This document shows, one piece after another, positions 20,950 to 41,353 of a stretch of DNA of 44,578 bases (positions within the stretch are counted from its first letter, which is position 1; the number at the start of each line of letters is the position of its first letter). The position numbers and the translations under genes were made by a program. Under the pieces are notes generated by a model that searched no databases, had not been told where the DNA came from, and saw only the letters and a program-made list of their open reading frames with translations. The stretch lies in NCBI GenBank assembly GCA_026776125.1, contig GCA_026776125.1_4343.1; one strand, 5' to 3'. The DNA comes from a phage.

Positions 20950-20978
20950 TTGCACACCCCAACATAATAGGTTACTAT
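20950..20978 (+). promoter_or_regulatory. Promoter-like element, class II (TTGCAC-N17-TACTAT)
   Basis: Shared with 21751(+), 32092(-), 41325(-); followed by conserved leader CGAAACGAGA and RBS before 21013. Confidence 0.45.
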
Positions 20979-21012
20979 TCACTTATCGAAACGAGACATA
21001 AGGAATTTAGAA

Positions 21013-21231
21013 ATGAACAAAGCGACCGCAAGCGTAGTTTCCGCAATCAAACAAGTTTACGGCATCGATATTTCAGAGCGCGTAATTATCGGGAACAAAC
21101 GCAACTTCTTTACGTTCGGCACCGACGGTATGGATGGAAACGATTTTAACAACGTACAACGTTTCGCTATCGGTAAGGGGCTTCGTAATGAGCCCGCGGG
21201 TTACAAGAAATTCGCTATCTACTTTAAATAA
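21013..21231 (+). CDS. Hypothetical early protein (72 aa)
   Basis: ORF with RBS AAGGAA, downstream of class II promoter. Confidence 0.45.
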   Translation: MNKATASVVSAIKQVYGIDISERVIIGNKRNFFTFGTDGMDGNDFNNVQRFAIGKGLRNEPAGYKKFAIYFK

Positions 21232-21288
21232 ACCCACGGCGCCGAATCATGGCGCCAGTGCCGACGACTCTGAGGGAGGTTGCCGTTA

Positions 21289-21444
21289 ATGAAAATTCGA
21301 ATAACTGGCCGCAGGCTTATAGATTTCGGTATCTCGGTAGGTGATGTTTTTCTGGCGTTCAGCAGCAACCATTATGGTTTTATGATTGAGTACAAAGGGT
21401 CATTATTGTTCGTGTATCGGGATGAATGCGAGGTTCTGGTATGA
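21289..21444 (+). CDS. Hypothetical small protein (51 aa), not in ORF track
   Basis: Hand-translated; strong RBS GAGGGAGG upstream of ATG. Confidence 0.35.
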   Translation: MKIRITGRRLIDFGISVGDVFLAFSSNHYGFMIEYKGSLLFVYRDECEVLV

Positions 21445-21602
21445 GAGAAGCATTCGAACGGTGGGCCGTCGTCGATGGTCTGCCGGTTAATAAGGGTTCG
21501 AAGAAAGAGTACCTGAACGTTAAGACGCGTCTTGCGTGGCGGGCGTGGAAAGCTGGTGCGCAATATCGGGCCGGTGTAACAGGCGGTGTAACAGGTCAAT
21601 AG
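21441..21602 (+). CDS. Hypothetical small protein (53 aa), not in ORF track
   Basis: Hand-translated; ATGA overlap with upstream ORF. Confidence 0.3.
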   Translation: MREAFERWAVVDGLPVNKGSKKEYLNVKTRLAWRAWKAGAQYRAGVTGGVTGQ

Positions 21603-21750
21603 GTTACTATTTGTCTTTGTGTCTTACGCTGCTACACAGCAGCGTACAACTTTAACTTAGTGTCGTCAAAAGGCGACACTTCCATAAGACACTGTTGGGG
21701 CAGGGATAAAGTGTCCCCAGTTAGCGACACTAAGCACCAATAAAATTTAC

Positions 21751-21779
21751 TTGCACACTAGGATAGAATAGACTACTAT
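21751..21779 (+). promoter_or_regulatory. Promoter-like element, class II (TTGCAC-N17-TACTAT)
   Basis: Same architecture as 20950; followed by leader CACGAACGAGAGGAG. Confidence 0.45.
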
Positions 21780-21810
21780 TCATTTACACGAACGAGAGGA
21801 GATACGGAAG

Positions 21811-21960
21811 ATGGTTACTTTGATGGTTATGGAATTCGAAAACAGCGCAGCAACTTACCGTGAGATGACTATGGCGCAGGCGTATCACCTGGCCTCAAAC
21901 GGCAACTTCTACAAGGCGCAAATAATCAACGAGTTTGGGGTAATTGACTATGAATTTTAG
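21811..21960 (+). CDS. Hypothetical small protein (49 aa), not in ORF track
   Basis: Hand-translated; RBS GAGAGGAG upstream. Confidence 0.3.
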   Translation: MVTLMVMEFENSAATYREMTMAQAYHLASNGNFYKAQIINEFGVIDYEF

Positions 21961-22222
21961 CAGCTACACCGTTACCGTTGATTTTGAGGGGCTGGAGTTG
22001 CCCCTCCCCAACAACTACAGATATGTCACGCGCGACCGTAACGGGTTTATCCAGGGGTGGCGGAACAAACCGACAGATACTGAGTTCGGGATGTCGGGCG
22101 GCGAAGAGTTGCCTATCACTTTCGGGCATCAGAGTAGCAGCGAAGAGCTTAAAACTGTGATTCGTAAGTATCGCCGCCGCGGTAACACTGGGCTTATAGC
22201 AATAACAGGTGCTGTTGAATAA
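21950..22222 (+). CDS. Hypothetical protein (about 90 aa)
   Basis: ORF track 21944..22222; ATG at 21950 preferred over TTG at 21944. Confidence 0.4.
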   Translation: MNFSSYTVTVDFEGLELPLPNNYRYVTRDRNGFIQGWRNKPTDTEFGMSGGEELPITFGHQSSSEELKTVIRKYRRRGNTGLIAITGAVE

Positions 22223-22251
22223 GCGAGAGGAGAGACAAAGGTGAAAGAGCT

Positions 22252-22455
22252 ATGACCAGCATCTTATTTATCTGGGTATTGTCGGCGGGCCAGATGCAAC
22301 TAGCGGCATCAGAAACGTTTTACTCGATGGAGGCGTGCCAGTCAGCGGCACGCGCCGCAGAAAACGCGCACTTCCTGTTTCAGGGTGACAAGCCCATCGA
22401 TTCAGAGGTACGCGCTATCTGCTCACCTAAGAGACTTGGTAAACAGGAGAAGTGA
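22252..22455 (+). CDS. Small secreted protein with N-terminal signal peptide
   Basis: MTSILFIWVLSAGQMQLAASE hydrophobic leader followed by soluble Cys-containing domain. Confidence 0.45.
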   Translation: MTSILFIWVLSAGQMQLAASETFYSMEACQSAARAAENAHFLFQGDKPIDSEVRAICSPKRLGKQEK

Positions 22456-22640
22456 TTATGGTGCAGAGATATACCTACGACCAGATATTCGGGTTTACTC
22501 CTGATGTTGAGGGCGTGTTAGTGCTTTACGAAGATTACGCGAAACTTGAAGCTGAGTTACAGAAATACAAAGACCAGTACCCTGATTACGTCGAGTGCGC
22601 GAACTGTGGGTCGGTTACACATGTGGAGGGGGTGGAGTGA
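22452..22640 (+). CDS. Hypothetical small protein (62 aa)
   Basis: ORF with ATGA overlaps on both sides; CANCGS Cys pair. Confidence 0.4.
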   Translation: MIMVQRYTYDQIFGFTPDVEGVLVLYEDYAKLEAELQKYKDQYPDYVECANCGSVTHVEGVE

Positions 22641-22933
22641 TGTCGTTAGCAACTGACATCCTGAAACGAAGCGGCCTTGCGCCGCTGTCACCGAGAGCGA
22701 AGACACGTATACACAAGCGTCGCCGTAACGTGCTGTACCCAGAGATACAAGAACGGCGTAAAGCTATCCGCGCCTGTGGATTCCAGAACGGAAAGGCCGT
22801 GAATCTAGGAGAGTTTAAAACACAGGAACGCGCGGCAATCGCTAATCGGTTATTTAATTACTGGAAATCGCTGGGATACGATGATATTCCATCGAAACCG
22901 CAGAGACGACAATACATCTGGCGTCATAAATGA
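22640..22933 (+). CDS. Hypothetical basic protein (97 aa)
   Basis: ATG at 22640 with RBS GGAGGGGG, in frame with ORF-track entry 22595..22933. Confidence 0.4.
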   Translation: MSLATDILKRSGLAPLSPRAKTRIHKRRRNVLYPEIQERRKAIRACGFQNGKAVNLGEFKTQERAAIANRLFNYWKSLGYDDIPSKPQRRQYIWRHK

Positions 22934-23008
22934 ACCGTTATTAAGATAATTCCTAACCGTGCTATCCTCCAGTTACTGCATACTTAATACGCACCTGGAG
23001 GATTCATC

Positions 23009-23317
23009 TTGGATAAATTTACTGAAACAGTGACGGGGTGGCTTCTGGCAGCCGCACTAGCTGGTGGGGTAATAGGCTTACGGCAACATAAGTCCGCTAT
23101 TTCCGGCCCTATCGACGGATTCTGCTTTATTGCAACTGGCTTCGCTTGCGCCGTATTTGGCGCGCCTCTTGCCGCTCAATGGTTCGGTATTACCGGAGAG
23201 CGCGAGATAGCTGGCCTCGGATTCATCATCGCAATTCTCTGGATGCCCATCTATTCCCGTCTCTCCGGTATCGTCGCCGGAGAATACATCGCACGTCGAG
23301 GAGGCACAGATGAATGA
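23009..23317 (+). CDS. Putative holin (membrane protein)
   Basis: Multiple hydrophobic helices and charged C-terminus; immediately upstream of lysozyme gene. Confidence 0.5.
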   Translation: MDKFTETVTGWLLAAALAGGVIGLRQHKSAISGPIDGFCFIATGFACAVFGAPLAAQWFGITGEREIAGLGFIIAILWMPIYSRLSGIVAGEYIARRGGTDE

Positions 23318-23582
23318 GTTATTCTGGTTCTGCGGTATGCTGGCAATCGGAGGCACATCGCTGTTTAATGTGTATCATCCCAGCGTTGACGACGGGCTAT
23401 TTGGCCGGGTGCTCTATATCCTGACAGCTATTGTCTGCGCCGCCGGATGTATCCACCTGTTACAGGGCAGCATGTCACCTACGCTGCCTGAGACATTAAT
23501 CACTTTAGTTGCGCTGCGCCAGATTCGTCAGGCGTGGCTGTCGTACGGAGGACATAAGCGTGTCTCGAAACATTTCAGATAA
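23310..23582 (+). CDS. Membrane protein, possible second holin/antiholin
   Basis: Two hydrophobic segments; overlaps holin end and lysozyme start. Confidence 0.35.
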   Translation: MNELFWFCGMLAIGGTSLFNVYHPSVDDGLFGRVLYILTAIVCAAGCIHLLQGSMSPTLPETLITLVALRQIRQAWLSYGGHKRVSKHFR

Positions 23583-24048
23583 TGGCATCAAATTCACCGC
23601 CGCGTTCGAGGGATTCCGCGGAACCGCGTATCGCGCTACACCGAACGAGAAGTACCTGACTATCGGGTACGGTCACTACGGGCCGGACGTTAAGGCGGGG
23701 CAAACAATCACGCCGGGACAAGGCCTCCTGTTACTTAATCGCGATATGGCTAAAGCCGTAGCTGCGGTTGATGCGGCAGCACACCATTCACTGACACAGG
23801 CACAGTTCGACGCAGTGTGCGACCTGGTGTATAACGCGGGTGCCGGTGTGATTGCCGCTACCACGGGCACAGGTAAGGCGCTGCGTTCTGGTGACATCGC
23901 GACGCTGCGGGCTAAGCTGGCGCTGTTCATCAACCAGAACGGCAAACCGTTACTAGGCCTGCGTCGTCGTACCGCCGGTCGTCTGGCGCTGTTCGACGGT
24001 AAACCGTGGCAAGAGGCTGAGGCTATTGGGCGCGCGGTGAAAGGTTGA
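23560..24048 (+). CDS. Endolysin, T4/P22-type lysozyme (glycoside hydrolase family 24)
   Basis: FEGFRGTAYRATPNE...LTIGYGHYG...FDAVCDLVYNAGAG signature; GTG at 23560 preferred start within ORF-track entry 23509..24048. Confidence 0.8.
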   Translation: MSRNISDNGIKFTAAFEGFRGTAYRATPNEKYLTIGYGHYGPDVKAGQTITPGQGLLLLNRDMAKAVAAVDAAAHHSLTQAQFDAVCDLVYNAGAGVIAATTGTGKALRSGDIATLRAKLALFINQNGKPLLGLRRRTAGRLALFDGKPWQEAEAIGRAVKG

Positions 24049-24114
24049 CACATAAGACTAATCCGACGATACTTAAATCACCTCCTGCTCCATCCCTCTA
24101 CTCTCCAGTTTTAT

Positions 24115-24144
24115 CCCGGCCCTGACCCAGCCGGGATTTTTTTT
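24115..24144 (+). terminator. Rho-independent terminator (cccggc-loop-gccggg + T9)
   Basis: Stem-loop followed by ATTTTTTTTT after the lysis genes. Confidence 0.65.
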
Positions 24145-24166
24145 ATCTATTTTCTGCAATGACTAG

Positions 24167-24195
24167 TTGACTATTATCATCGACCCTATTATATT
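24167..24195 (+). promoter_or_regulatory. Sigma70-like promoter (TTGACT-N17-TATATT)
   Basis: Hexamers with 17-bp spacer, followed by conserved leader CGACAACGAGAG and RBS before 24229. Confidence 0.45.
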
Positions 24196-24228
24196 TACTC
24201 CATCGACAACGAGAGCGGAGTAGAGAAG

Positions 24229-24378
24229 ATGAAAATCACAGATATCGAAGCATTCAAAGACGCGCAACTGATGGCGCGCATCGCCGTTAGCAACCTGAGC
24301 AGTAGCATTCCGGCGGACGCGTTCTGGTTCGCTGCGATGCAGACACTAAAAGCCGCTTATGCAGGAGAGAAGAAATGA
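24229..24378 (+). CDS. Hypothetical small protein (49 aa), not in ORF track
   Basis: Hand-translated; RBS GGAGTAGAGAAG; ATGA overlap with next gene. Confidence 0.35.
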   Translation: MKITDIEAFKDAQLMARIAVSNLSSSIPADAFWFAAMQTLKAAYAGEKK

Positions 24379-24659
24379 CAAACCAACAGTTAATTAGCGC
24401 GGGTTATAGGGTTGTGTCGCGAAAGCATAAGACACTTTCTCGCATAGACCGCGCGGACTGGAAACAGGTGTTGGCTAAACATCAATGCCCGTGGGACGCA
24501 GACGGCGAAGGGATGGAGTGGGTGCTTAATCTAGGTGAGCGCAATTCCGAAGATTATTACAGACGCTGTATAAGTAAGGATATGATAGCTGTTGATGATA
24601 TAAACGGAATCCCTAACAGCGGGAGCGCGGTAACTGGATACATAGGAGAGAAGAAATGA
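24375..24659 (+). CDS. Hypothetical protein (94 aa)
   Basis: ORF with coupled start. Confidence 0.45.
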   Translation: MTNQQLISAGYRVVSRKHKTLSRIDRADWKQVLAKHQCPWDADGEGMEWVLNLGERNSEDYYRRCISKDMIAVDDINGIPNSGSAVTGYIGEKK

Positions 24660-24817
24660 GCGAACAAGGCCAAGTAAGCCAACCATTACGCGTAGGCCGT
24701 AAGGTGAGTCACACCCCGTTCCCGACACGCGAGGAACTGATGAAACGTAACAGTTTCCCTGGGCCGGACAAGAACAAGTATCTCAACCGCATGTGGGGAG
24801 AGCGTAAAAATGACTGA
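24656..24817 (+). CDS. Hypothetical small protein (53 aa), not in ORF track
   Basis: Hand-translated; ATGA overlap with upstream ORF. Confidence 0.3.
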   Translation: MSEQGQVSQPLRVGRKVSHTPFPTREELMKRNSFPGPDKNKYLNRMWGERKND

Positions 24818-24995
24818 CCGTGAATATGAAAAGATGATGGTAGAGGCCGTTAACGGCGGCGTAGACATTAGCCACGTGATGTGCGTCCTGAATAATAAAA
24901 TCGCGGTAGCCGAGCAAATGGTGGAGTCGCTTTATGAGACGCGCCGCGAACTGATTAACCGCTTCAACCTGAACAAAGGTGACACCAATGCCTAA
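24810..24995 (+). CDS. Hypothetical protein (61 aa)
   Basis: ORF in early block. Confidence 0.4.
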   Translation: MTDREYEKMMVEAVNGGVDISHVMCVLNNKIAVAEQMVESLYETRRELINRFNLNKGDTNA

Positions 24996-25287
24996 AATCA
25001 CAATTGCATCGCTCGAGCGCCGTATTATGGTGCTTGAGTCGGAGAAACAGACGTTAGGCGGGCAACTGTCAATTAACGGTGAGTTTCAACTGGAGGCGTA
25101 TAAAGAACTTCTAGAGGCGTTTAAAGAGCTACAAGCCATCGCGTCTGACATAGAAAATATGATTGGATTGTTGCAATCCGGGGAGTGGGCCGAACACTGC
25201 ACTAAATCGGTGTTAGGAAAACGGCTTGAGACGGAGATTACTGACATGCTGAGTTGTCTTGTTGAGGCGCCAGATGAGCACGCCTGA
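24979..25287 (+). CDS. Hypothetical protein (102 aa)
   Basis: ORF in early block. Confidence 0.4.
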   Translation: MTPMPKITIASLERRIMVLESEKQTLGGQLSINGEFQLEAYKELLEAFKELQAIASDIENMIGLLQSGEWAEHCTKSVLGKRLETEITDMLSCLVEAPDEHA

Positions 25288-25456
25288 GCCGGTAGTTATC
25301 GATGGCGTCCTGTGGAAACCTTACTCGGTTAACCACATCGACGCCGATGGGAAGAAGTTCAGTTTCTACATTTTTGCGATTAGCCGTGAGCACGCTGCGT
25401 GTGTAGTAGACGATATACGAGAAACGGCGTGGCTTGGCGATGAGATAGTGGGGTGA
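25259..25456 (+). CDS. Hypothetical protein (65 aa)
   Basis: ORF in early block. Confidence 0.4.
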   Translation: MLRRQMSTPEPVVIDGVLWKPYSVNHIDADGKKFSFYIFAISREHAACVVDDIRETAWLGDEIVG

Positions 25457-25686
25457 GAGCATGAGTCTTGAGGTTGTTATAAGTCTGGTTGGTCTTAGTT
25501 ACTTCATTGGGCTATTGGTCGGTTTTCTGTGGGGTAGATACTAATGTTCAGCGACATCAACGCAGCAATCGAAGAAGCAATCTGGCGCCGTTACAACGGC
25601 GAGCAGCAACGGCACTTCTGCCTGGTGCAACGCGGCAACATGGTCGCCGTGGTGCAGGACCGCGATAACAAATATCCGAATGCGAT

Positions 25687-25947
25687 GTGGACGACGAGGA
25701 ATTTCTTAGGATGATTACCAGCATTCCTAACCTTATTAAAGAATTTGGCACGATGGCGGAGACGTGCCGACAAACAGGCCTCAACGAAATGACGATTGCT
25801 AAGTACAGTAAAGACGTTGATTGTGAGCGCCACGTAATTTATAACAATCGTCTGATGACGCACGTTAAGACTAGCCCGGTGTTATTCACGCGCCGTGGTA
25901 TCACTAAAACTGAGCAACGTATTGCTAAAGAGGAGAGTGGAGAATGA
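25687..25947 (+). CDS. Hypothetical protein (86 aa)
   Basis: ORF in early block. Confidence 0.4.
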   Translation: MDDEEFLRMITSIPNLIKEFGTMAETCRQTGLNEMTIAKYSKDVDCERHVIYNNRLMTHVKTSPVLFTRRGITKTEQRIAKEESGE

Positions 25948-26099
25948 AAAAGTTAACTATCTACTGGAAAACAGGGGCTACGTCAGAACTCGATGTTTTC
26001 AGCGTAACGCAGTGTGAAAAGTTCTGGTATGCCGAAACATTCAACGGTGAAGTGAGAATACCAATCGCACTGGTAGACGGCGGCGATATAACAGAATAA
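25944..26099 (+). CDS. Hypothetical small protein (51 aa), not in ORF track
   Basis: Hand-translated; RBS AGGAGAG; followed by terminator. Confidence 0.3.
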   Translation: MKKLTIYWKTGATSELDVFSVTQCEKFWYAETFNGEVRIPIALVDGGDITE

Positions 26100-26110
26100 C
26101 CAACCCACAA

Positions 26111-26132
26111 GCCCTCTACGGAGGGCTTTTCT
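26111..26132 (+). terminator. Rho-independent terminator (gccctc-tacg-gagggc + TTTTCTG)
   Basis: Stem-loop plus T-run at end of early block. Confidence 0.6.
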
Positions 26133-26226
26133 GTACATCCCGCCCAATACCCTTATATAATCCATTTAGACGCGTAGGGCGCGTCTGGTGCGCTCTGATG
26201 GTCAGACGCATATGCAAGGGGATTCT

Positions 26227-26772
26227 ATGAAGCTGAAACTCAAGCAGCCATCGCCAGAGGTGGTGCAAGCTGCACATGAAGAAGCTGTTAGCGCAAACCG
26301 TCGCCGTAGACGACCGCGCGGCAAACAGAGCCTTTATCAATCATCCCGTAATTCCGCCGCGTTGTGGGACCCGGACTATTGCGACGCTTTAATCGAGTTC
26401 TTCGACCGCACGTCATGGGAGCTTGTGCCTACGTCTAAGGGTGACGAACGCCCGCTGATTCAGGATAAACCACCGTCACTGGCCCGCTTCGCCTTACACA
26501 TCGGAGTCACTATCCCGATTATTAAGCTTTGGCTGCGTGAGATTCCCGCATTTGCAGAAGCCTATGAAACGGCGCAGGCGCTGGAAGAGGCGTACTTCAC
26601 CGAGACAGGGGCTGCGGGCATCTCGGCTACGTTTGCCGCGGCTAAACTGGGCCTCAGCAAAGAGAAACCGGTTGCATCCACCGAAGAACCAGCACCGACT
26701 GAGATTGTTTTCAGTGTTGCGGAGCCTGTAGGTAAAATCGTAACAACGAACATGGGTGAGGTGGAGGAATGA
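26227..26772 (+). CDS. Putative terminase small subunit
   Basis: Immediately upstream of and coupled to terminase large subunit; basic N-terminal region; ATG at 26227 with RBS AAGGGGA. Confidence 0.45.
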   Translation: MKLKLKQPSPEVVQAAHEEAVSANRRRRRPRGKQSLYQSSRNSAALWDPDYCDALIEFFDRTSWELVPTSKGDERPLIQDKPPSLARFALHIGVTIPIIKLWLREIPAFAEAYETAQALEEAYFTETGAAGISATFAAAKLGLSKEKPVASTEEPAPTEIVFSVAEPVGKIVTTNMGEVEE

Positions 26773-28019: not shown

Positions 28020-28031
28020 GAGGATTATTAA

Positions 28032-29501: not shown

Positions 29502-29506
29502 ATAGA

Positions 29507-29532
29507 AAGGCCCCGCTAGGGGCCTTAGTTTT
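29507..29532. terminator. Bidirectional hairpin terminator (aaggcccc-gcta-ggggcctt)
   Basis: 8-bp stem between convergent genes (portal + and 29531..30184 -). Confidence 0.6.
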
Positions 29533-30184
29533 AACGTATATTAGCCGCACATTTACGCACAACCCGAGGTATCGCCTCTTTCAGTTCACCCCATGTATTA
29601 ACGGCCTCCATGTCAAGAAGCGTCACCAGAGCTTTCTGGATGTCACTTCGCAACTGATTGGTCTTCGCATCCTGAGAGTCCCATGTATCGAAACCCGTTA
29701 CGTCGCGGATATCTACGGATTCCTTTACCGCTTTAGCCACCTGTATGAAGTGTCCACTGTGGCCAATTCTTCCCTCCGTGCGCTCGATCATTCGACTAAC
29801 GGCAGCGTTAAGCTCGACAAAGCTCACCGCGCCAATGTTTCGTAGTTCTACCTGCCGTTGTGTGATAAAGCGGTCGATAACGAGGAAATGGAAATAGGCG
29901 CTGTATTGCTCAGCAATATATACTGCCAGATGGAGACATGCAAAGGTGCGACCGTTTCGGCCTTTCGTCGCCCTTATGGCATTCTCGATTCCGAGTTGTT
30001 TTTCGCATTCCTCCTTGAAAATCTTGAAGCCATCCGTTGCCATGACCTGGCGAAGCTCTCTGGCCCCCATGCCGTTGTCTAAACGCCAACGGTTCATCTG
30101 GTCAACCAGCTCGTTTACGTTAATAAAGTTTTCACGGTCAAAAGTGATTTCTCCATAAGGGAACTCTAATGTTTGCAGTTTCAT
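29531..30184 (-). CDS. KilA-N-like domain protein (moron on opposite strand)
   Basis: N-terminal region ending GRTFACLHLAVYIAEQYSAYF resembles KilA-N domain signature; unknown C-terminal domain. Confidence 0.4.
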   Translation of the reverse strand: MKLQTLEFPYGEITFDRENFINVNELVDQMNRWRLDNGMGARELRQVMATDGFKIFKEECEKQLGIENAIRATKGRNGRTFACLHLAVYIAEQYSAYFHFLVIDRFITQRQVELRNIGAVSFVELNAAVSRMIERTEGRIGHSGHFIQVAKAVKESVDIRDVTGFDTWDSQDAKTNQLRSDIQKALVTLLDMEAVNTWGELKEAIPRVVRKCAANIR

Positions 30185-30210
30185 GTGTATTTCTCCTGTT
30201 TAAGTGTACG

Positions 30211-30240
30211 TTTAAATTCTACATTTGAATGTAGAATTTA
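30211..30240. promoter_or_regulatory. Perfect 13-bp inverted repeat with 4-bp spacer (TTAAATTCTACAT-TTGA-ATGTAGAATTTAA); putative operator
   Basis: Verified by reverse-complementing; lies 27-56 nt upstream of start of 29531..30184. Confidence 0.5.
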
Positions 30241-30326
30241 ATCAAGCTCTTTTTAACCTTAAATGCGTATGATTATGCCAATACGTTACCGACTGATATG
30301 ATTGTCATATCGAAACAGGAGGGTAT

Positions 30327-31831: not shown

Positions 31832-31834
31832 TAA

Positions 31835-31862
31835 AAGGCCCCATTATGGGGCCTTAGTTTTC
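31835..31862. terminator. Bidirectional hairpin terminator (aaggcccca-tta-tggggcctt)
   Basis: 9-bp stem between convergent genes. Confidence 0.55.
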
Positions 31863-32064
31863 AACGGAATCTTGTGTTTAAATCCTGCTCATGGACAACC
31901 CTCAGAACAGTGTCATAATCCCCGTATCTTCCAGGTTCAAATATATCTAATGCCTTGTAAGCAGACATTGCGTCAGGGAAAACCTGCAGAACCTTTTTAA
32001 CCCGGCACAAGTCACCGTCGAACTCTTCATCGAACTCTTGAACTACTTCGCAAATTGCATACAT
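31861..32064 (-). CDS. Hypothetical acidic protein (67 aa), opposite-strand insert
   Basis: ORF with RBS AGGAGG, driven by class II promoter element at 32092. Confidence 0.45.
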   Translation of the reverse strand: MYAICEVVQEFDEEFDGDLCRVKKVLQVFPDAMSAYKALDIFEPGRYGDYDTVLRVVHEQDLNTRFR

Positions 32065-32091
32065 TTTTCACCTCCTGTTTAAGTTAACTGA

Positions 32092-32120
32092 ATAGTACCC
32101 TATTATATTGGGGTGTGCAA
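32092..32120 (-). promoter_or_regulatory. Promoter-like element, class II (TTGCAC-N17-TACTAT on minus strand)
   Basis: Near-identical to 41325(-) and 20950(+). Confidence 0.5.
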
Positions 32121-32395
32121 ACTATTTATTTACGTATTCCAGTTATTCCTCCGAATTGTAAATGTTGGAATAAACTATTCGAATAGTTGACTTTTCACTA
32201 AAAATATGATAAGCTCCACCTGAGCTTGTGAAGTATGAACAAGCGACCGCGGCGCGGGCAGGTAACGGAGCGGGACGTAAGTCCTGAGTGTAGTTACGCT
32301 GACGCGTTCGGAAGGGCCATACTCTATTGCTTGTGTAAAAAGTAACTGGTTTACTGAGATTACGCCGTTTCTATGTTTAAATGATAAGGACTAGC

Positions 32396-32935: not shown

Positions 32936-33017
32936 TTGCCTTGCATGTTGGAATAATTTATTCTTGACATGTAAATCCGGGTGGCCCGGATTCCAACGTC
33001 CAGGGGACATACTGACT

Positions 33018-33719: not shown

Positions 33720-33721
33720 TA

Positions 33722-34771: not shown

Positions 34772-34787
34772 GGTTAAGCTATAATCG

Positions 34788-34811
34788 AGAGGGACTTCGG
34801 TCCCTCTTTTC
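34788..34811 (+). terminator. Rho-independent terminator (agagggac-ttcg-gtccctct + TTTTCATTT)
   Basis: Perfect 8-bp stem plus T-run after capsid gene. Confidence 0.65.
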
Positions 34812-34832
34812 ATTTACTAAGAGGATTCCTAA

Positions 34833-35174
34833 ATGGTAGACGTATTGAAGCGACGTATCACCGGCGTCTCCGCTGACGCCCCGGGCGCTAAGATTGACAT
34901 GGCGACTATTTCTCCTGCGTCTTTCTCTTCCGCGCTGGCGGCTACTACCGCAGTGACCACAGGTGAAACTATGACGCTGACCGTAACGGTAGCCGGTGGT
35001 CTGGAGCCATATTCTTACCAGTGGTATAAGAATAACAACGCCATCGCCGGGGCTACCGCAGCTACCTATGCTAAAGCATCGACCACTGCCGCCGACTCCG
35101 GTACGTATAAAGTGGTTGTTCACGATGCGTATGGTAATATTATCTCCAGCAGCACTGTAGCAACTGTGTCTTAA
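34833..35174 (+). CDS. Ig-like domain protein (putative capsid decoration)
   Basis: TMTLTVTVAGGLEPYSYQWYKNNNAIAG...GTYKVVVHDAYG Ig-like pattern. Confidence 0.45.
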   Translation: MVDVLKRRITGVSADAPGAKIDMATISPASFSSALAATTAVTTGETMTLTVTVAGGLEPYSYQWYKNNNAIAGATAATYAKASTTAADSGTYKVVVHDAYGNIISSSTVATVS

Positions 35175-35210
35175 TACAGCGGCCCTTCGGGGCCGTAATA
35201 AGGAAAGGTC

Positions 35211-35390
35211 ATGGCAGATAATTATGTAATCCGCGAAAAGTACACCCACGTTGATATTGTAGACGGTCAGGTGATGCCTGTTCGCGGTGTGGTAGAAGCG
35301 GATGAACTGGTTGCGACTCAACCGGACAACGAAGAAGCGCACAACAACGGCGGTGGTGCTAAGCGTCGTCGCCGTAAATCAGAGGAATAA
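35211..35390 (+). CDS. Hypothetical small protein with basic C-terminus (59 aa), not in ORF track
   Basis: Hand-translated; RBS AAGGAAAGG; ends GGGAKRRRRKSEE. Confidence 0.35.
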   Translation: MADNYVIREKYTHVDIVDGQVMPVRGVVEADELVATQPDNEEAHNNGGGAKRRRRKSEE

Positions 35391-35393
35391 TTT

Positions 35394-35906
35394 ATGCCGC
35401 TAATCGTGGAAGACGGGTCGATAGTACCTAACGCCGACAGTTACATTAGTCTGGCTGACGCCCGCGCGTTAGCGGCTAATTACGGTCTTGAGTTACCCGC
35501 AGACGATACTGCCGCAGAGGTGGCACTGCGCAACGGTGCTACCTATGTCGGGCTTGCAGAACCTCAGATGTGTGGTCACCGCGTATCCGCCGAGCAGTCC
35601 CTGGCGTACCCACGTACGGGAACAACACTAAACGGCTTCACCGTAGCTGATAATGTTATCCCACCGCAGTTAATCCGGGCGCAGGTAATCGCCGCTGTTA
35701 CGTATGGAGCGGGCACTGATGTTCGGGCTAACTCCGATGGACGTTCCGTGCAGACCGAGCGTGTAGAGGGTGCGGTAACAGTTACCTACTTCAACAACGG
35801 CAACAGCGGGGCCACAACCGCGATTACCGCCGCTGACGACGCCTTACGCCCGTTACTGTGTGGTGGTCTTAACAACGGCTTCTCATTTAATGTGTACCGG
35901 GGTTAA
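35394..35906 (+). CDS. Putative head-tail connector/adaptor protein
   Basis: Position between capsid and tail genes; synteny only. Confidence 0.35.
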   Translation: MPLIVEDGSIVPNADSYISLADARALAANYGLELPADDTAAEVALRNGATYVGLAEPQMCGHRVSAEQSLAYPRTGTTLNGFTVADNVIPPQLIRAQVIAAVTYGAGTDVRANSDGRSVQTERVEGAVTVTYFNNGNSGATTAITAADDALRPLLCGGLNNGFSFNVYRG

Positions 35907-35908
35907 AA

Positions 35909-36523
35909 ATGGCGAAGACTAAATCAGAGATGTTTACTCTTATCGGCGCAAACCTCCCCGATAACACTACCGGGCTTATTACCCCAGCACCGTTGCGCGA
36001 GGTAATGACACAGATGGCTGACTCACCTATTTACGCCACTCCAGGTGTTAAAGAGGTTGAAGTTCTCCGTGCCGCGTCTAAGGAAACCCAAGCGCCTACC
36101 GCGGTAGATACGGCATTGCAGTTAACTTTCGGTGCAGCTCAGGGTAGTGCATCCGACCCGGTAATGATTAATGCTGCGGGGCTGGTTACATTCAACACCG
36201 CCGGTAACTACGCCGTTCGCATCAAGTTACAGGCAGGCCGCACAGGTGCCAGCGGAACGTCTATCCTGTTATCACGCATTCTTCTGAACGGTGCTCAGTA
36301 CGGCTCACCTGCCGCCACGAAACTGGTAAGCGCGGACACCACAATCACGATTGAATCTCGCGTTGTTATTAACCCAACAGCAGGCCAGACGTTTGCCGTT
36401 CAGATTATGCGGGATAGCGTCGGAACTAACTTCGGTGGTGTATACCCGCAAGTAGCTACCGTAACCGCATGGGGTACAGCACCCTCTGCGCTACTGGTTA
36501 TTTCGAGACTGGAGGCCGCCTGA
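35909..36523 (+). CDS. Putative head-tail joining protein
   Basis: Synteny only. Confidence 0.3.
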   Translation: MAKTKSEMFTLIGANLPDNTTGLITPAPLREVMTQMADSPIYATPGVKEVEVLRAASKETQAPTAVDTALQLTFGAAQGSASDPVMINAAGLVTFNTAGNYAVRIKLQAGRTGASGTSILLSRILLNGAQYGSPAATKLVSADTTITIESRVVINPTAGQTFAVQIMRDSVGTNFGGVYPQVATVTAWGTAPSALLVISRLEAA

Positions 36524-36882
36524 TGAGCACAGCTTTCAGTAAACGTATGCAAGGCGTAGGTACACGCCTGTTAACCAAATTCGGTAGTACGGTATCTCTG
36601 ATTCGCGCTGGCTCGAAAGTGTGGGATGAAGTTCTCGGTGAGTACGTCTGGTCTGCGGACGAAGTGTTGCCGTTGAAGGCCGTTCCGGTTCCTGTTAATG
36701 CGGGTCTGGTGAACGGTACGACGATTCAGGCTGGTGACATGATTGTTAAAGCCGATTACAGCGTCGTTCCTAAGATGGAAGACAAAGTGCAATTCGGCGG
36801 CGAGCAATGGTCCGTCGTAGCCATTGAGAAGAAGGTGGTTAACGATGATGTTGTGGCCTACTTTATTCAGGTGAGAAAATGA
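36523..36882 (+). CDS. Putative head closure / neck protein
   Basis: ATG at 36523 (TGATG overlap) within ORF-track entry 36469..36882; synteny. Confidence 0.3.
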   Translation: MSTAFSKRMQGVGTRLLTKFGSTVSLIRAGSKVWDEVLGEYVWSADEVLPLKAVPVPVNAGLVNGTTIQAGDMIVKADYSVVPKMEDKVQFGGEQWSVVAIEKKVVNDDVVAYFIQVRK

Positions 36883-37274
36883 GTTTCGCGCTTGATGTGT
36901 CTAAGTTCGTGGAAAAGGCGAAGAAGAACCCTGAGACGGTGATGCGTCAGGTGTCTATCAAACTGTTTTCCGCTATTATAAAGGCGAGTCCGGTAGATAC
37001 AGGCCGCTTTCGCATGAACTGGATGCCATCTGGCGGTACTCCTGATTCCGGGGTTACAGATGCTACAGATAAATCGGGAAACACGGCAACCGGAAACGCT
37101 ACGAGTTTCGTACTGAAAGCCACAGACTGGCGCGAGTTCACGCTGACAAATAATCTGCCGTATGCTCAACGGCTGGAATATGGCTGGTCGCAACAGGCCC
37201 CCGCCGGGATGGTCAGGACTAACGTATCCCGCTTTCAGCAACTCATTAACGAAGAAGCCAACAAGGTGAAATGA
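36879..37274 (+). CDS. Putative tail completion / neck protein
   Basis: Synteny; ATGA coupling. Confidence 0.3.
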   Translation: MSFALDVSKFVEKAKKNPETVMRQVSIKLFSAIIKASPVDTGRFRMNWMPSGGTPDSGVTDATDKSGNTATGNATSFVLKATDWREFTLTNNLPYAQRLEYGWSQQAPAGMVRTNVSRFQQLINEEANKVK

Positions 37275-37687
37275 TGGGCTACTTTGAGGACTTAACAAAA
37301 GCGTTTGATGTGCCGCTGGTAGCCTTCGGAACCGCCAACGGCATCAAGGTCGCGCTTGAAAACATCGACGCGCCGACGTCAACCGATACGCCGTATCTGG
37401 CGAGTTACATGCTACTAGCGGATACCGAGCAGGCTGATTTGTTCTTTACGGAACAACGCTCTGGTATTTATCAGGTCGACATTAACTACGCATCGGCGAA
37501 AGGTAGCGCGGAAATCAATAAAATGGCAGACTTACTTAACACGGCGTTTAAAGCAGGTAAGTCATTTTCACGTAACGACATCTGCGCCGAGGTTCAATCG
37601 GTTAGCCTGGGGCCGCTGATTGTAGAAAACGTATGGGCCAAACGGCCATTGTCAATTAACTTTATAGCATTCACCAAGAGGCTGTGA
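37271..37687 (+). CDS. Putative tail terminator protein
   Basis: Synteny, immediately before major tail protein. Confidence 0.3.
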   Translation: MMGYFEDLTKAFDVPLVAFGTANGIKVALENIDAPTSTDTPYLASYMLLADTEQADLFFTEQRSGIYQVDINYASAKGSAEINKMADLLNTAFKAGKSFSRNDICAEVQSVSLGPLIVENVWAKRPLSINFIAFTKRL

Positions 37688-37689
37688 AT

Positions 37690-38856
37690 ATGGCTACAAC
37701 TCCTTTTAAGGGCGCGAATACCGCGCAATTCTATGTGGCGGAAGTGACCCCGGGCGTAACACCGGCTAACCCGGTATGGTCGCCGTTGCGCAACACGGGC
37801 GGCGTTCCTGCCATTACCCGCGACACGCTGACCTCCAACGAACTCGACGGCAGCCGTGAAACTACATCCATCCGCACCGGTAACAAACAGGTTAGCGGTG
37901 AATACGCAATTGAGCTTAGCTCTAAAAGCCAGGATGACTGGTTGGCAGGTGCTTTAGGCTCTACGTGGCAATCCGGTGTTTCTCTGTCAGGACTATCGAT
38001 CACCGTCGCACCCGCGGGCAAGACGTTCACACGCGCTACCGGCAGTTTTATCACTGACGGAGTTGGGGTAGGCGACCTGATTGCGTTTACCGACTTAACA
38101 GGCGATAACGCAAAACCATTTATTGTTACCGCAGTAACGGCTACGGTTGTTACTGGTGCGGGCATCCAACACACCCTGACCACCGAGACAAAAACTAGTA
38201 AGGCTAAAACTGGCGACACGTTGGAAACCGGTAACACGTGTAAGACGTTCTCTATCCTTACCTGGTACAAAGGCCAGTGCGGCGGTACTGACGCGTACAC
38301 GTTAACCAAAGGCGTGGAAGTTTCTGGTTTTACCATCGAACAGGCTGTTAACGCGATGGTAACTGGCAGCTTCCCATTCATCGGTCGCAGTCAGGAGATT
38401 CTCACTACGCCGCCGACCGGTTCCAACTTCTCATCTGTTACTTTTGGTGATGAGCCGTTCTCTTCGGTTGACGTTTCCGTGTTCGACGGCTCTACGCCGT
38501 TGCGTTGCGACAGTCTGACTATCACCAACGATAACAGCGCGTCCGCGCAGTTTGAACTTGGTAACACTAACGTAGCGTTTGTGGAGCGTAGCCGTGCAGC
38601 TAACACCTTCTCCATCTCCGGTAAGCTGTATGACATGGCGATGATTCAGAAGTTTATCAACGAGCAGCAGGTAGAGATTAACTCTATTCTGGCAGGGGTA
38701 AACGGGGCTATGTCTTTCAGTTTGAAACGTGCAGAGCTTACGGCGGTTACACCTGAGATTGGTGGGCCTGAGTCAATCACTCAGTCCATTGAAGGCCAGG
38801 CTACCGGCAATCAGTACCAGTCGTCTATCGTAATTCAACGTATCACCTACGCATAA
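37690..38856 (+). CDS. Putative major tail protein
   Basis: 389-aa ORF preceding the chaperone and tape measure genes; RBS AAGAGG; followed by strong terminator. Confidence 0.5.
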   Translation: MATTPFKGANTAQFYVAEVTPGVTPANPVWSPLRNTGGVPAITRDTLTSNELDGSRETTSIRTGNKQVSGEYAIELSSKSQDDWLAGALGSTWQSGVSLSGLSITVAPAGKTFTRATGSFITDGVGVGDLIAFTDLTGDNAKPFIVTAVTATVVTGAGIQHTLTTETKTSKAKTGDTLETGNTCKTFSILTWYKGQCGGTDAYTLTKGVEVSGFTIEQAVNAMVTGSFPFIGRSQEILTTPPTGSNFSSVTFGDEPFSSVDVSVFDGSTPLRCDSLTITNDNSASAQFELGNTNVAFVERSRAANTFSISGKLYDMAMIQKFINEQQVEINSILAGVNGAMSFSLKRAELTAVTPEIGGPESITQSIEGQATGNQYQSSIVIQRITYA

Positions 38857-38860
38857 AACT

Positions 38861-38886
38861 AAGGCCCCTTTCGGGGCCTTTTTCTT
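38861..38886. terminator. Bidirectional hairpin terminator (aaggcccc-tttc-ggggcctt + TTTTCTT)
   Basis: 8-bp stem between convergent major tail gene and minus-strand cassette. Confidence 0.65.
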
Positions 38887-39439
38887 ACAAACCTAATTTT
38901 AAAGCAATGTCTATAACGTTCGATTTAACGTCACCCGGTATGATGTAGGTGTCGTAATCTTTTACACCACTAACATCGTACAGATAGCCACGGCTATCGC
39001 AGATGAACGTATAGCCGTCACGATGGAGGCGGACGATTCGCACGTCATGCCCCGCGGCGACGATAGGGGCAACTTCACTGGCGAATCCACCGTCGGACAC
39101 TACAAAAACTTCGTCGCCGTCAGGCAAGTTTTCAGCAAGATACTTACCGAAATAATCATCGCCGAATACCGGTTTAATGAATTGCTCAGAAATGGCAATC
39201 ATTAACCGGCGGCGGGACAACCCATTAAGAAAACCCTCGGGTTTTTCTTTCCGCGCCCGGTCGTCGTAGCCGTCGAGAAATTCGTGGTAAGCATCCTGGC
39301 CTAACGCTGCCAAAGCAATATTGAACATTGGGTTCTTGAAACTGGTAGTTCCTTTCGCAAAGCCCATTTCTACCAGCGCCATAGCAAGCGTGTCTTTCCC
39401 GCAACCCGCAGGGCCATTAAGAATAATTACCTTAGCCAT
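38885..39439 (-). CDS. P-loop nucleotide kinase, dNMP-kinase-like
   Basis: Walker A GPAGCGKDT at N-terminus; overall resemblance to phage deoxynucleoside monophosphate kinases (by eye, unverified). Confidence 0.55.
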   Translation of the reverse strand: MAKVIILNGPAGCGKDTLAMALVEMGFAKGTTSFKNPMFNIALAALGQDAYHEFLDGYDDRARKEKPEGFLNGLSRRRLMIAISEQFIKPVFGDDYFGKYLAENLPDGDEVFVVSDGGFASEVAPIVAAGHDVRIVRLHRDGYTFICDSRGYLYDVSGVKDYDTYIIPGDVKSNVIDIALKLGL

Positions 39440-39927
39440 TATTTATTGCTCCCGTGTGGTTTTAAGTGTGTAGAGTTCCCGTTACAGTCGTATTCGGTAA
39501 CTGCGTGTGCGGTTATGCCGAGGTCACGGAAATGCTTTATTACCGCTGGGGAGTCGTCGAACGCACACAAGATTCTTTCCAGTCCGAAAGCACGCAACAC
39601 CTCTTCTTTAATTACGATGTCTTTTCTGTTGTCGTGTTTGCTGCGCATGATTAGCGTGTCAAACCTAACGTTATTCTCTCGTAACCATTCGCGAGTCTCC
39701 TCCTCAGCGTCATCACTTCGCCCGGTAAGGATAATTATAGTAAGTCCGGAATGCCACAGTACGCTACACAAATGGATATTGTCGTATATCGGAGCGTCAT
39801 CTTTGCAGGCCATGTTAAATGGCTTCCACGCCCACGTTTCTCCGTAGTTATCTTTTGGTAACAGGTGTAAGCGATGGGTACCGTCGGCCAATGTCCCGTC
39901 TAAATCGAAAATTACAATATCTTTCAT
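39439..39927 (-). CDS. HAD-superfamily phosphatase, resembling the 3'-phosphatase domain of polynucleotide kinase-phosphatase
   Basis: HAD motif I IFDLDGTLA at N-terminus; further motifs TGR and RKDIVIKEEVL...FDDSP. Confidence 0.55.
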   Translation of the reverse strand: MKDIVIFDLDGTLADGTHRLHLLPKDNYGETWAWKPFNMACKDDAPIYDNIHLCSVLWHSGLTIIILTGRSDDAEEETREWLRENNVRFDTLIMRSKHDNRKDIVIKEEVLRAFGLERILCAFDDSPAVIKHFRDLGITAHAVTEYDCNGNSTHLKPHGSNK

Positions 39928-41054
39928 CCCAGCATCTCCGGTGAAATAGTTAAACGTGCGACCTCGCCATATTCGGCGCTATAAGTAATTACATTTGCAC
40001 TGCGGCCCGACATCCATCCGCCGTGAGAGGCGTAGGCGTCTTTAGCCGCTAAGGTGCGGTGTTGCTCAACAATCATGTTACGGCTTTCTACAATCTTCTG
40101 GTGGTGCAGATGGCCTACGTGGGCGTAGCTGTAAACACTCTCGCCGAACGCTTTACGGAACTTGGCAATCATAACCGGTTCGATAGCGTCGAATCGTGCT
40201 TTATGCCCGTGATGGAAGAACAGCGTCGTTTTGCCGTGTTGCACCATCTTGTAAACATCCGGCGACGTATCAACAATCACTCGGCTGTCGTTTGAGTATA
40301 AAACCGTGAACATTTCGGCAAGCCATACGGAGCCAACAGGGTCGTGGTTACCTTGAACGATTAAAAGTTTTACTGTGTGATGCTTAACCAGCGCCATATC
40401 AACAACACGGCGGACCATACGAATCATGTAACGTACCAGTTTCTGATAGCGAGTATCCGCATCTAATACATGGCGCGACTCGGGGGTAACGGCATCAAGA
40501 CTATCGAAGTGTGCGAAGTCCCCAAGCAGGTTAATAACTCCTGTTCCTGCATCCGGTGCTTTCTGAAACGCCGCGTCGAACCACCGAGAGAACAGGTCTT
40601 CTGCAATCTTCATGTCCCAGTCGTCGCCGCTCTCATCGGCCCATGCCAGCATACCGAGATGGAAATCAGATACAGTGTAAAGATTGAGTAGCTTGTCGTC
40701 ACGTTTGGCGCGCGCCGCTTTAACAGGCGCAACGGGCGTAATCTCTGACTTCATGCCCTCTATTACGGCTTTCATCAATTCAACCTGACGTTCGGCGTCG
40801 GTATCAGTCTTAACCCATTGCAACTTAGTGTTGCCGAACTCGTCCACAAGTGACGACGTTCCTTTAATCTTGTAGCCGTCTGGCACAAGGTGGCTAACGT
40901 CGCGCCCGTGGCCCACGCCTTTCTTAGCCAGCTTCGCTTTACGGATACGAATTACGCGGTCTGAGATGCCGTATTTACGGGCGATATCTACATTCTTCAT
41001 ACCGGCGTTCAATTCTTCCTGCAACTGTTCGTCGGTTATTTTCTTCCGGGCCAT
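39924..41054 (-). CDS. Calcineurin-like metallophosphoesterase with N-terminal HTH domain
   Basis: HTH-like N-terminus (VDIARKYGISDRVIRIRK); phosphoesterase motifs SDFHLG, GDFAHFD, GNHD, HHGH, GHLHH (Mre11/SbcD-like pattern). Confidence 0.55.
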   Translation of the reverse strand: MARKKITDEQLQEELNAGMKNVDIARKYGISDRVIRIRKAKLAKKGVGHGRDVSHLVPDGYKIKGTSSLVDEFGNTKLQWVKTDTDAERQVELMKAVIEGMKSEITPVAPVKAARAKRDDKLLNLYTVSDFHLGMLAWADESGDDWDMKIAEDLFSRWFDAAFQKAPDAGTGVINLLGDFAHFDSLDAVTPESRHVLDADTRYQKLVRYMIRMVRRVVDMALVKHHTVKLLIVQGNHDPVGSVWLAEMFTVLYSNDSRVIVDTSPDVYKMVQHGKTTLFFHHGHKARFDAIEPVMIAKFRKAFGESVYSYAHVGHLHHQKIVESRNMIVEQHRTLAAKDAYASHGGWMSGRSANVITYSAEYGEVARLTISPEMLG

Positions 41055-41091
41055 GTTTATTCCTCGTGCTTAGGATTTGTCCTATACTAGC

Positions 41092-41283
41092 TCACTTCTC
41101 TTTGACATTCGAGTTGCAAGCCCAGATTAAAATAAATACCCACGGCAGCAGAACCCATCCAAGAAACAGATTAGCCATGAATATCGCTAATTTCGCTTTA
41201 TGGTCGCGCATATGCGCCACGAGAAATGGAGTAAAATAAACTAAAACGATAATGATTAAGAAGAACATAGTAATACCCGTCAT
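41092..41283 (-). CDS. Small membrane protein (63 aa)
   Basis: ATG at 41283 with RBS AGGAG; two hydrophobic helices (ITMFFLIIIVLVYFTPFLV and FLGWVLLPWVFILIWA); ORF-track entry 41092..41421 starts too far upstream. Confidence 0.45.
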   Translation of the reverse strand: MTGITMFFLIIIVLVYFTPFLVAHMRDHKAKLAIFMANLFLGWVLLPWVFILIWACNSNVKEK

Positions 41284-41324
41284 GGTGTAGCTCCTGTTTG
41301 GGATAACATCGTTGGTGTAAGTGA

Positions 41325-41353
41325 ATAGTACACTATTATATTGGGGTGTGCAA
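41325..41353 (-). promoter_or_regulatory. Promoter-like element, class II (TTGCAC-N17-TACTAT on minus strand)
   Basis: Near-identical to 32092 copy; about 40 nt upstream of 41283 start. Confidence 0.5.

Follow-up and report, generated by a model that had tools for sequence, protein, structure and literature searches.

Dimers of the phage 434 regulators, 434 Cro and 434 repressor, recognise operators of 14 bp. PeSL cassettes of T4-type phages, reportedly described by Arbiol et al. in 2010, are said to be units of an early promoter and a stem-loop which flank hypervariable genes, and morons, defined for HK97/HK022-type phages, are promoter-gene-terminator units inserted in late operons. The moron concept has also been used for phage eta (PMC3918226). 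Here we compare with these systems a set of promoter elements in a 44,578-nucleotide stretch of phage DNA (GenBank assembly GCA_026776125.1, contig GCA_026776125.1_4343.1), which we refer to as the window. A reading of the sequence alone had pointed to a promoter-like element in four copies, two of them heading genes that face backwards within the late structural operon. The explanation that we favour, and consider moderately probable as a whole, is that these elements are sigma70 promoters carrying an embedded operator of a Cro-like repressor regulon. The observations concern sequences, their statistics, positions and conservation, and protein homologies.

To judge by its gene map and closest matches, the window is an essentially complete Kagunavirus-type siphophage genome (Guernseyvirinae). 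By megablast, relatives number in the hundreds among phages of E. coli and Salmonella; EF2-1, phiEc3 and BEU33 match best, at about 90-93% identity. Unlike the lambdoid phages, this phage has neither an integrase nor a long repressor of the CI type, and lytic growth has been described for its relatives.

The four-copy element proved to be present as described, the pattern TTGCAC-N17-TACTAT occurring with no mismatch at all four positions, 20950-20978 and 21751-21779 on the plus strand and 32092-32120 and 41325-41353 on the minus strand. A scan of the window for this pattern gave no further site at one mismatch (0.25 expected), and none of 100 shuffles reached four sites. A longer pattern, TTGCACAC-N4-A.A.AATAG-NN-TACTATTCA, which consists of the 20 positions common to all four copies, occurs at four sites, with no fifth even at 3 mismatches (0.00 expected), while the bare hexamer pattern at 3 mismatches yields background only (24 matches against 33.6 expected). 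The four elements form a discrete, non-random family, denoted class A, and they are listed below with the genes that follow the two plus-strand copies.

20950-20981, plus strand: P1, class A, TTGCAC-17-TACTAT followed by TCA; palindrome at 20966-20979; predicted transcription start (+1) near 20985
21013-21231, plus strand: cargo of P1, a gene for 72 amino acids (aa)
21751-21782, plus strand: P2, class A; palindrome at 21767-21780; predicted +1 near 21786
21811-21960, plus strand: cargo of P2, a 49-aa DUF7170 gene, followed by small genes up to the holins and endolysin
about 24115-24145, plus strand: terminator of the P2 unit
32089-32120, minus strand: P3, class A; palindrome at 32091-32104; predicted +1 near 32085
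41322-41353, minus strand: P4, class A; palindrome at 41324-41337; predicted +1 near 41318

The sequence-only reading had called the copies near-identical. Over the 32 nt of the element this is true of P1, P3 and P4 but less so of P2: a single position of the 32 separates P3 from P4, the G/T that had already been seen, two separate P1 from P3, and seven P2 from P3. The leader reported after the plus-strand copies is real (TCACTTATCGAAACGAGA at P1 and TCATTTACACGAACGAGA at P2), and the motif scan in relatives that had been proposed as a check shows promoter and leader recurring in about 90 related contigs. Their promoter-like character is borne out by the hexamers, by the 17-bp spacing and by their position at the heads of gene units. 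The spacer between -35 and -10 is 17 bp in all four copies, and the TTG of the -35 and the TA...T of the -10 are kept both in these copies and in the approximately 90 related ones. The start is predicted to lie about 7 nt past the -10 TACTAT, which places a Shine-Dalgarno sequence and ATG 21-35 nt further on at all four elements. The class A hexamers match the sigma70 consensus at 7/12 positions only and, for this reason, a simple sigma70 scan did not list them.

The element had been named "class II promoter-like". In the sense of phage T7 the name does not apply, since the class II promoters of T7 are 23 bp long, serve a single-subunit polymerase of the phage and are similar to the present elements only in being repeated, conserved promoter-like sequences of about 30 bp; if it is taken to mean a second promoter class, it is acceptable, because the genome also carries a class B (see below). 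No RNA polymerase or sigma factor gene was found in the window, nor an RNA polymerase gene in the annotated relative EF2-1, and the T7-type 23-bp consensus TAATACGACTCACTATAGGGAGA has no match in the window at up to 3 mismatches. Homology assigns the ORFs (open reading frames) longer than 300 aa to tail, helicase, DNA polymerase, primase-helicase, nuclease, terminase, portal, capsid and similar functions, except for 1133-2530, which lacks a Pfam match and occupies a tail-gene position of the relative; none of them is RNA polymerase-like. From this gene content, together with their geometry, the four elements appear to be promoters for the host sigma70 RNA polymerase rather than T7-style class II promoters.

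A phage-encoded T7-like polymerase has nevertheless been proposed for this very motif. For the Kagunavirus Golestan, seven "conserved promoter sequences" of the TAATAGGGTACTATTCA type, two of them before ORF48, were obtained with PHIRE (PMC7203180, Table S4), and for fBC-Eco01 seven PHIRE "phage RNAP promoters" were listed with the consensus tgAATAGTa-ccTATTat-T and ascribed to a phage-encoded RNA polymerase (PMC9825357, Table S2). The latter consensus is the reverse complement of ATAATAGG.TACTATTCA and, thus, the same motif as that found here. Both lists consist of 20-mers only, with no -35, palindrome or Cro-like gene noted, and the polymerase assignment appears to be an artefact of the PHIRE workflow, as genomes of the group encode no such enzyme. 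Gene content already refutes such a polymerase, the elements have sigma70 geometry, and we consider this explanation to be hardly credible.

Several other assignments were tried and rejected. By eye, the elements do not fit the sigma32, sigma54, sigma28 or sigmaS consensus; the CCCCAAYAT that follows the -35 does resemble a sigma32 -10, but there is no -35 at the right distance and P2 lacks the motif. A perfect TATAAT in the spacers of P3 and P4 was considered as the true -10, but it has no conserved -35, only P4 showing a weak ATCACA. Pausing of the lambda PR' type was suggested by AACGAT in the P4 leader, which we take to be the lambda pause element, and was dropped because the corresponding AACGAG of P1 and P2 lacks the essential T and because a Q-like gene was not seen. 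Sites for ArgR, Fur, OxyR and CRP differ in spacing.

The 3' part of the class A element led to a second and wider set of sites. The half-element TACTATTCA occurs six times in the window against about 0.3 expected, and the 14-bp palindrome AATAG-N4-CTATT has 8 exact and 4 one-mismatch copies against 1.1 expected, a level that 0 of 100 shuffles reached. In an unbiased count of all 5-Nk-5 palindromes AATAG-N4-CTATT came first in the window (8), in K1G (6) and in Jersey (4), the other top palindromes in the three being mainly GC-rich terminator stems. Eleven of the 12 copies overlap a -35, a spacer or a -10. In addition to the four that lie over the -10 of P1-P4, the copies are as follows:

1012-1046, minus strand: promoter of the 28-999 insert, TTGACC-17-TAGTAT (1018-1046), with a one-mismatch palindrome at 1012-1025 over the -10
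10959-10987, minus strand: class B promoter TTGACG-17-TATAGT, 10/12 to consensus, with the palindrome 10964-10977 in the spacer
14527-14555, minus strand: class B promoter TTGACA-17-TATAGT, 11/12, with the palindrome 14532-14545 in the spacer; upstream of the gene for a single-stranded-DNA-binding protein
17467-17495, minus strand: class B promoter TTGACA-17-TATAGT, 11/12, with the palindrome 17472-17485 in the spacer; back-to-back with the promoter of a Cro-like gene
17516-17529, plus strand: second copy of the putative operator, AATATGGTACTATT, overlapping the promoter region of the Cro-like gene
21598-21611, no strand assigned: orphan exact palindrome AATAGGTTACTATT, without a -35 and overlapping the stop codon of ORF 21426-21602
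24162-24195, plus strand: promoter TTGACT-17-TATATT, with a one-mismatch palindrome at 24162-24175 over the -35; downstream of the endolysin terminator
32182-32215, plus strand: candidate promoter TTGACT-17-TAAGCT, with a one-mismatch palindrome over the -35; divergent from P3

The distribution of these sites can be followed on the gene layout, which was taken from the ORF map and from EF2-1:

up to 7967, plus strand: tail genes
8130-20533, minus strand: replication module
21013 to about 26100, plus strand: small genes and lysis genes
26188 to the end of the window, plus strand: packaging, head and tail genes
28-999, 29531-30184, 31861-32064 and 38885-41283, minus strand: inserts that break the series of structural genes

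The class B promoters are the three best consensus promoters of the minus-strand replication module, and an independent sigma70 scan placed them among the top matches in 1-20000 (11/12, 11/12 and 10/12); in them the palindrome is inverted relative to transcription. The promoter at 24162-24195 has a leader, ATCGACAACGAGAG, which is related to that of class A, and the candidate at 32182-32215 would restart transcription towards the spanin and head genes. The palindrome is absent from the leftward promoter 20542-20570 and from a candidate late promoter, 26132-26161, before the terminase gene.

Counted by hand, the palindrome is centred near -12.5 in class A, near -18.5 in class B and near -33.5 at 24162 and 32182. 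In the record of Jersey, sigma70-like promoters are annotated at the class B positions and at the P2-equivalent. The latter has the consensus TTGACA, and in the P4-equivalent the palindrome is retained but displaced by 3 bp upstream, towards the -35. Over 76 unique related elements, collected with a pattern that did not include AATAG, this pentamer is nearly invariant while the two central bases beside it vary freely. The palindrome therefore keeps its symmetry while sliding relative to the hexamers, which argues for a separate protein-binding site rather than a part of promoter recognition. In common with operators of the Cro/CI type, for which a length of about 14-17 bp is expected, it has conserved arms and a variable centre, and it lies in several copies over promoter elements. 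As one component of the favoured explanation, we propose that it is the operator of a phage-encoded dimeric helix-turn-helix (HTH) repressor.

The sequences around the class A elements bear on whether a regulator need be invoked at all. In the loci retrieved from relatives in IMG/VR and GenBank, the class A block occupies the same four genomic positions as here (P1 in 34 instances, P2 in 31, P3 in 9 and P4 in 23), and it precedes genes that vary widely: distinguished by their N-termini, about 20 different first genes follow it at P2, while P3 has five and P4 three, and in other records the P3 region overlies genes annotated as methyltransferase or RusA-like resolvase. Around P2, pairwise identity is about 30-40% outside the block and 80-97% only from about -20 to +60. 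Such a sharply bounded conserved island before unrelated genes could consist of plain constitutive sigma70 promoters, the palindrome being conserved through recent duplication or recombination of a portable block with no regulator bound. Hybrid arrangements of the kind expected from this do exist, as in contig L087, which joins the P3 upstream flank to the P1 leader, and the orphan copy at 21598, whose 14 bp are all the same as in P1, could be a remnant of recombination; it has a counterpart in the same flanking sequence in K1B4 and is absent from K1G. However, all that class B has in common with class A is the palindrome, which is inverted there and stands in another register, so that descent from one block does not explain it. 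Moreover, the pentamers conserved in the spacer and over the -10 are exact reverse complements of each other, which drift would not give, and the palindrome is kept across genera which are only about 70-80% identical in neighbouring non-coding DNA. Constitutive promoters without a regulator are, on balance, unlikely to account for the whole set.

The register of the palindrome is informative about the mode of action of a bound protein. If the palindrome is an operator, its binder would act by steric repression, since the positions observed, across the -10, in the spacer and across the -35, are all repression positions. We know of no E. coli regulator with an AATAG-N4-CTATT site. A role as the site of an activator or host factor, which would make the elements middle or late promoters dependent on that factor, would accommodate the weak class A hexamers and the fact that P2 leads into the lysis genes, as well as the assignment of the gene encoding Imm, which follows a P4-type element in K1B4, to the latest-peaking expression class (PMC12645636). 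Activators, however, usually bind upstream rather than at these positions, and the class B promoters, which carry the same palindrome and come near to consensus (11/12), should need no activator. We therefore regard activation as rather improbable and retain repression as the preferred mode.

The leading candidate for the binder, judged from homology and position, is a Cro-like protein encoded on the plus strand beside two of the palindromes:

17560-17775, plus strand: gene for a 71-aa protein with an HTH_3 domain (3.9e-13), the candidate repressor; terminator at 17764-17784

Its best solved homologues are 434 Cro, also of 71 aa, and 434 repressor (E about 1e-5). Two operator copies, at 17472 and 17516, lie between this gene and the strong divergent minus-strand promoter, and this layout is kept in every Kagunavirus contig examined (about 35); an HTH regulator gene thus stands next to operator copies, as is expected for Cro/CI-type control. 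The promoter of the gene can be read in two ways, one being TGGTACTAT, with an extended -10, and the other TTCACA-16-TAAAAT. Upstream of the genes for more distant homologues lie 5-N4-5 palindromes with the half-site ATTAG (contigs L177, L178, L180, L181 and L184), and SE1, a member of the Guernseyvirinae with a homologue 41% identical, has no AATAG palindrome.

The parallel with phage 434 lies in a small, dimer-type HTH protein homologous to both of its regulators and in 14-bp palindromes with conserved arms and a free centre which overlap sigma70 promoters; two sites between regulator gene and divergent promoter are also a feature of lambdoid control. The differences are that the half-site is AATAG here and ACAA in phage 434, that binding is here predicted from sequence, and that single sites are spread over at least 10 promoters, including those of antisense inserts, instead of being grouped in tripartite OL/OR clusters.

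Under the favoured explanation, unmodified host polymerase would fire all operator-bearing promoters after injection, and the early output would comprise the replication genes and the Cro-like gene, the small genes of the plus strand, and the inserts that face backwards, with superinfection immunity, the phosphoesterase/phosphatase/kinase cassette and the 67-aa gene. As the repressor builds up, it would occlude polymerase at every operator and the set, including the repressor's own gene, would be turned down together. The opposite-strand inserts would be plugged into this regulon as moron-like units, and the promoter-operator-leader block of about 80 bp would constitute the conserved island where relatives carry unrelated cargo.

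A number of points weigh against this proposal. We infer the transcription starts, the timing, the binding of a repressor and the identity of the binder, all of them from the sequence. The class A promoters fall well short of the sigma70 consensus, at 7/12, and block conservation could partly reflect recent recombinational spread rather than selection for an operator. The recognition helix of the Cro-like protein reads QGAINQ in Kagunavirus and QSLITH in Jerseyvirus, whereas AATAG-N4-CTATT is kept in both, and Jersey-type genomes have degenerate copies of the palindrome beside the Cro-like gene itself; given the differing helix and the constant palindrome, another protein, for example the HTH_17 protein encoded at 20339-20533, or a host factor could be the binder. 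The early timing, which is inferred from gene content and promoter type, sits awkwardly with the P2 unit, because this continues into the genes for holin and endolysin, the first clear terminator being that at about 24115-24145. Finally, in a time-course RNA-seq study of K1B4 the gene encoding Imm was placed in the latest-peaking class and called "late" (PMC12645636). The same study grouped this gene with those for DNA polymerase and methylases, apart from the flanking structural genes, which fits separate regulation. With sampling to 120 min against a latent period of 30 min, and with phage reads at no more than 8.9%, its early and late labels are unreliable and cannot settle the timing.

The two minus-strand class A elements head self-contained opposite-strand units which are closed by intrinsic terminators inside the structural operon, and a third insert, at 28-999, is similarly organised. 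The components are as follows:

8-33, minus strand: terminator of the 28-999 insert
28-999, minus strand: third insert, a gene for a 323-aa GIY-YIG/T5orf172-like protein with CapR/zinc-ribbon motifs
31835-31855, minus strand: intrinsic terminator closing the P3 unit, AAGGCCCCATAATGGGGCCTT followed by a T run
31861-32064, minus strand: cargo of P3, a 67-aa orphan gene with the Shine-Dalgarno sequence AGGAGG, present in 33 phage records; the BASEL kagunaviruses Bas70-76 have it too
38861-38880, no strand assigned: bidirectional intrinsic terminator where the plus-strand tail tube gene meets the minus-strand P4 cassette
38885-39439, minus strand: P-loop kinase, 184 aa, P4 cassette
39439-39927, minus strand: HAD-PNKP phosphatase, 162 aa, P4 cassette
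39924-41054, minus strand: metallophosphoesterase, 376 aa, P4 cassette
41092-41283, minus strand: Imm_superinfect protein, 63 aa (Pfam, 8.6e-13), the first gene of the P4 cassette

The downstream genes are those given in the sequence-only reading, with the addition of Imm_superinfect, which it had omitted although this is the first gene after the element ending at 41353. That reading had also tied the inserts to the early regulon rather than to the late structural programme. The shared sequence does argue for joint control of the four units, but the tie is incomplete as first described: the palindrome also marks the replication promoters, the promoter of the Cro-like gene and that of the 28-999 insert, so that the common denominator would be a genome-wide operator and not a private link between four units. 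The evidence supports the view that the inserts are wired to a non-structural programme, an idea which we widen to include the replication genes and the third insert.

The opposite-strand inserts behave like morons in that each has its own promoter and intrinsic terminator (P3 with 31835-31855, P4 with 38861-38880, and 1018-1046 with 8-33), lies between conserved late genes and is variable among relatives; EF2-1, for example, has no annotated gene in the P3 slot. Their antisense orientation to the surrounding operon implies separate expression, and the K1B4 grouping, from what is a weak study, likewise sets the Imm gene apart. They differ from morons in this orientation, in their occurrence in a virulent phage and in the use of the shared promoter-operator of the phage, which ties them to the phage programme rather than to prophage expression.

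An alternative for P3 and P4 is that they act wholly or additionally on the opposite strand, restarting the late genes downstream of the inserts. The reverse strand of class A does carry a -10-like TATATT or TATGTT, in the same palindrome register as the TATAGT of class B, and a plus-strand TTGGGG-16-TAGAAT overlaps the conserved upstream flank of P4. Read by eye, however, that strand has no acceptable -35 at the class B distance, and it is in the orientation originally given that TTGCAC is invariant at 17 bp and that a conserved leader with Shine-Dalgarno sequence and ATG follows at 21-35 nt. Transcription from P3 and P4 into the late genes is therefore very unlikely, and we continue to treat both as promoters of the inserts.

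The arrangement of the slots recalls the PeSL cassettes: slots which hold unrelated genes in relatives are bounded on the 5' side by the conserved regulatory block, of about 80 bp, and on the 3' side by conserved terminator hairpins, AAGGCCCC...GGGGCCTT. There is no sequence relationship to PeSL, and the block here also carries the proposed operator. A broader proposal, which we put forward tentatively and hold to be somewhat less probable than its negation, is that one 434-Cro-like protein governs nearly every strong host-type promoter of the phage through an operator placed at four registers, and that the block is a portable recombination module which enrols new genes, antisense inserts included, in a timed programme across the Guernseyvirinae.

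A literature search for transcription mapping in Jerseyvirus and Kagunavirus yielded nothing beyond the K1B4 study and the two PHIRE lists, and in the literature searched there was no mention of the -35, the palindrome and its registers, the link to a Cro-like gene or the cassette behaviour. The motif is, then, already known as PHIRE hits, and what is new is an example of familiar kinds, namely repressor-controlled host-type promoters and morons, and not a new kind. Conceptually it adds one more case and no new principle, a tidy but conventional regulatory design in a virulent tailed phage of E. coli, while it corrects the published assignment of the motif to a phage RNA polymerase (PMC9825357). 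Few phages of E. coli and Salmonella are proposed as often for therapy and biocontrol as the Guernseyvirinae (Kagunavirus and Jerseyvirus). If the explanation is true, it would provide for them a regulatory map, with the promoters that fire together, the protein that shuts them off and the starts of the transcripts, and would explain how backward-facing accessory genes, such as those for superinfection immunity, the end-repair-type cassette and the orphan genes, are expressed without disturbing the structural operon. It would also offer compact, repressible promoter cassettes, driven by the host polymerase, for engineering these phages.

Some further observations were made on the inserts and their boundaries. 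The metallophosphoesterase, HAD-PNKP phosphatase and P-loop kinase of the P4 cassette (38885-41054) are three separate proteins which resemble a split polynucleotide kinase-phosphatase end-healing system; no ligase was seen with this cassette, a preprint on ApeA had no bearing on it, and a role, for example in countering a nucleic-acid-cleaving host defence, may be considered as a candidate only. The 28-999 insert sits backwards between the tape-measure gene and the next tail gene, and its product is probably of the homing-endonuclease type. A further opposite-strand insert, 29531-30245 on the minus strand, lies between the portal and head-morphogenesis genes and encodes a 217-aa protein with a weak KilA-N match whose PHROG family is annotated 'amidase'. 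Its promoter, TTGATT-18-TAGAAT, differs from class A and is contained in a distinct 26-bp palindrome, AAATTCTACATTcaaATGTAGAATTT, which implies a second, separate regulator site; the Jersey record annotates a promoter at the equivalent place. Four near-identical bidirectional terminators of the form AAGGCCCC-loop-GGGGCCTT (7972-7991, 29507-29526, 31835-31855 and 38861-38880), often preceded by AACTA, sit at every convergent junction of plus- and minus-strand genes and, like the promoters, look like reused regulatory modules.

The region of about 416 bp immediately upstream of P1 (20534-20949) is gene-free, with no CDS (coding sequence) under the match in any listed annotated record, and it is conserved in 398 phage records covering Kagunavirus and Jerseyvirus. 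It contains an invariant promoter, TTGACA-17-TAAG(G/T)T, at 20586-20614 on the plus strand and an intrinsic terminator at 20858-20877, and the predicted transcript of about 265 nt has a folding z of -4.7. RNAalifold, applied to nine sequences, gave a long-range helix in which compensatory changes occur, together with an apical hairpin that is specific to a lineage. The region has no Rfam match, and at the gathering threshold Rfam gave 0 matches across the whole window. It is a candidate locus of a conserved non-coding RNA; alternatively, the DNA itself may form an origin-like structure.

Counting its complement, there are 12 copies of the 9-mer AACGGCAAC where base composition predicts about 0.3; they lie on either strand with respect to gene direction, at sites that include 10836, 15833, 20929, 21898, 35796, 42410 and 44007. 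Related words that contain ACGGCA are common too, in Jersey and SE1 as well as here, and the excess could be due either to biased oligonucleotide usage or to a word with a function.

Just upstream of the small terminase gene, at 26110-26161 on the plus strand, a terminator-like hairpin is directly followed by TGTACA-18-TATAAT. The promoter part of this sequence (26132-26161) combines a perfect -10 with a poor -35 and carries no palindrome, and the whole is a candidate for an activator-dependent late promoter.

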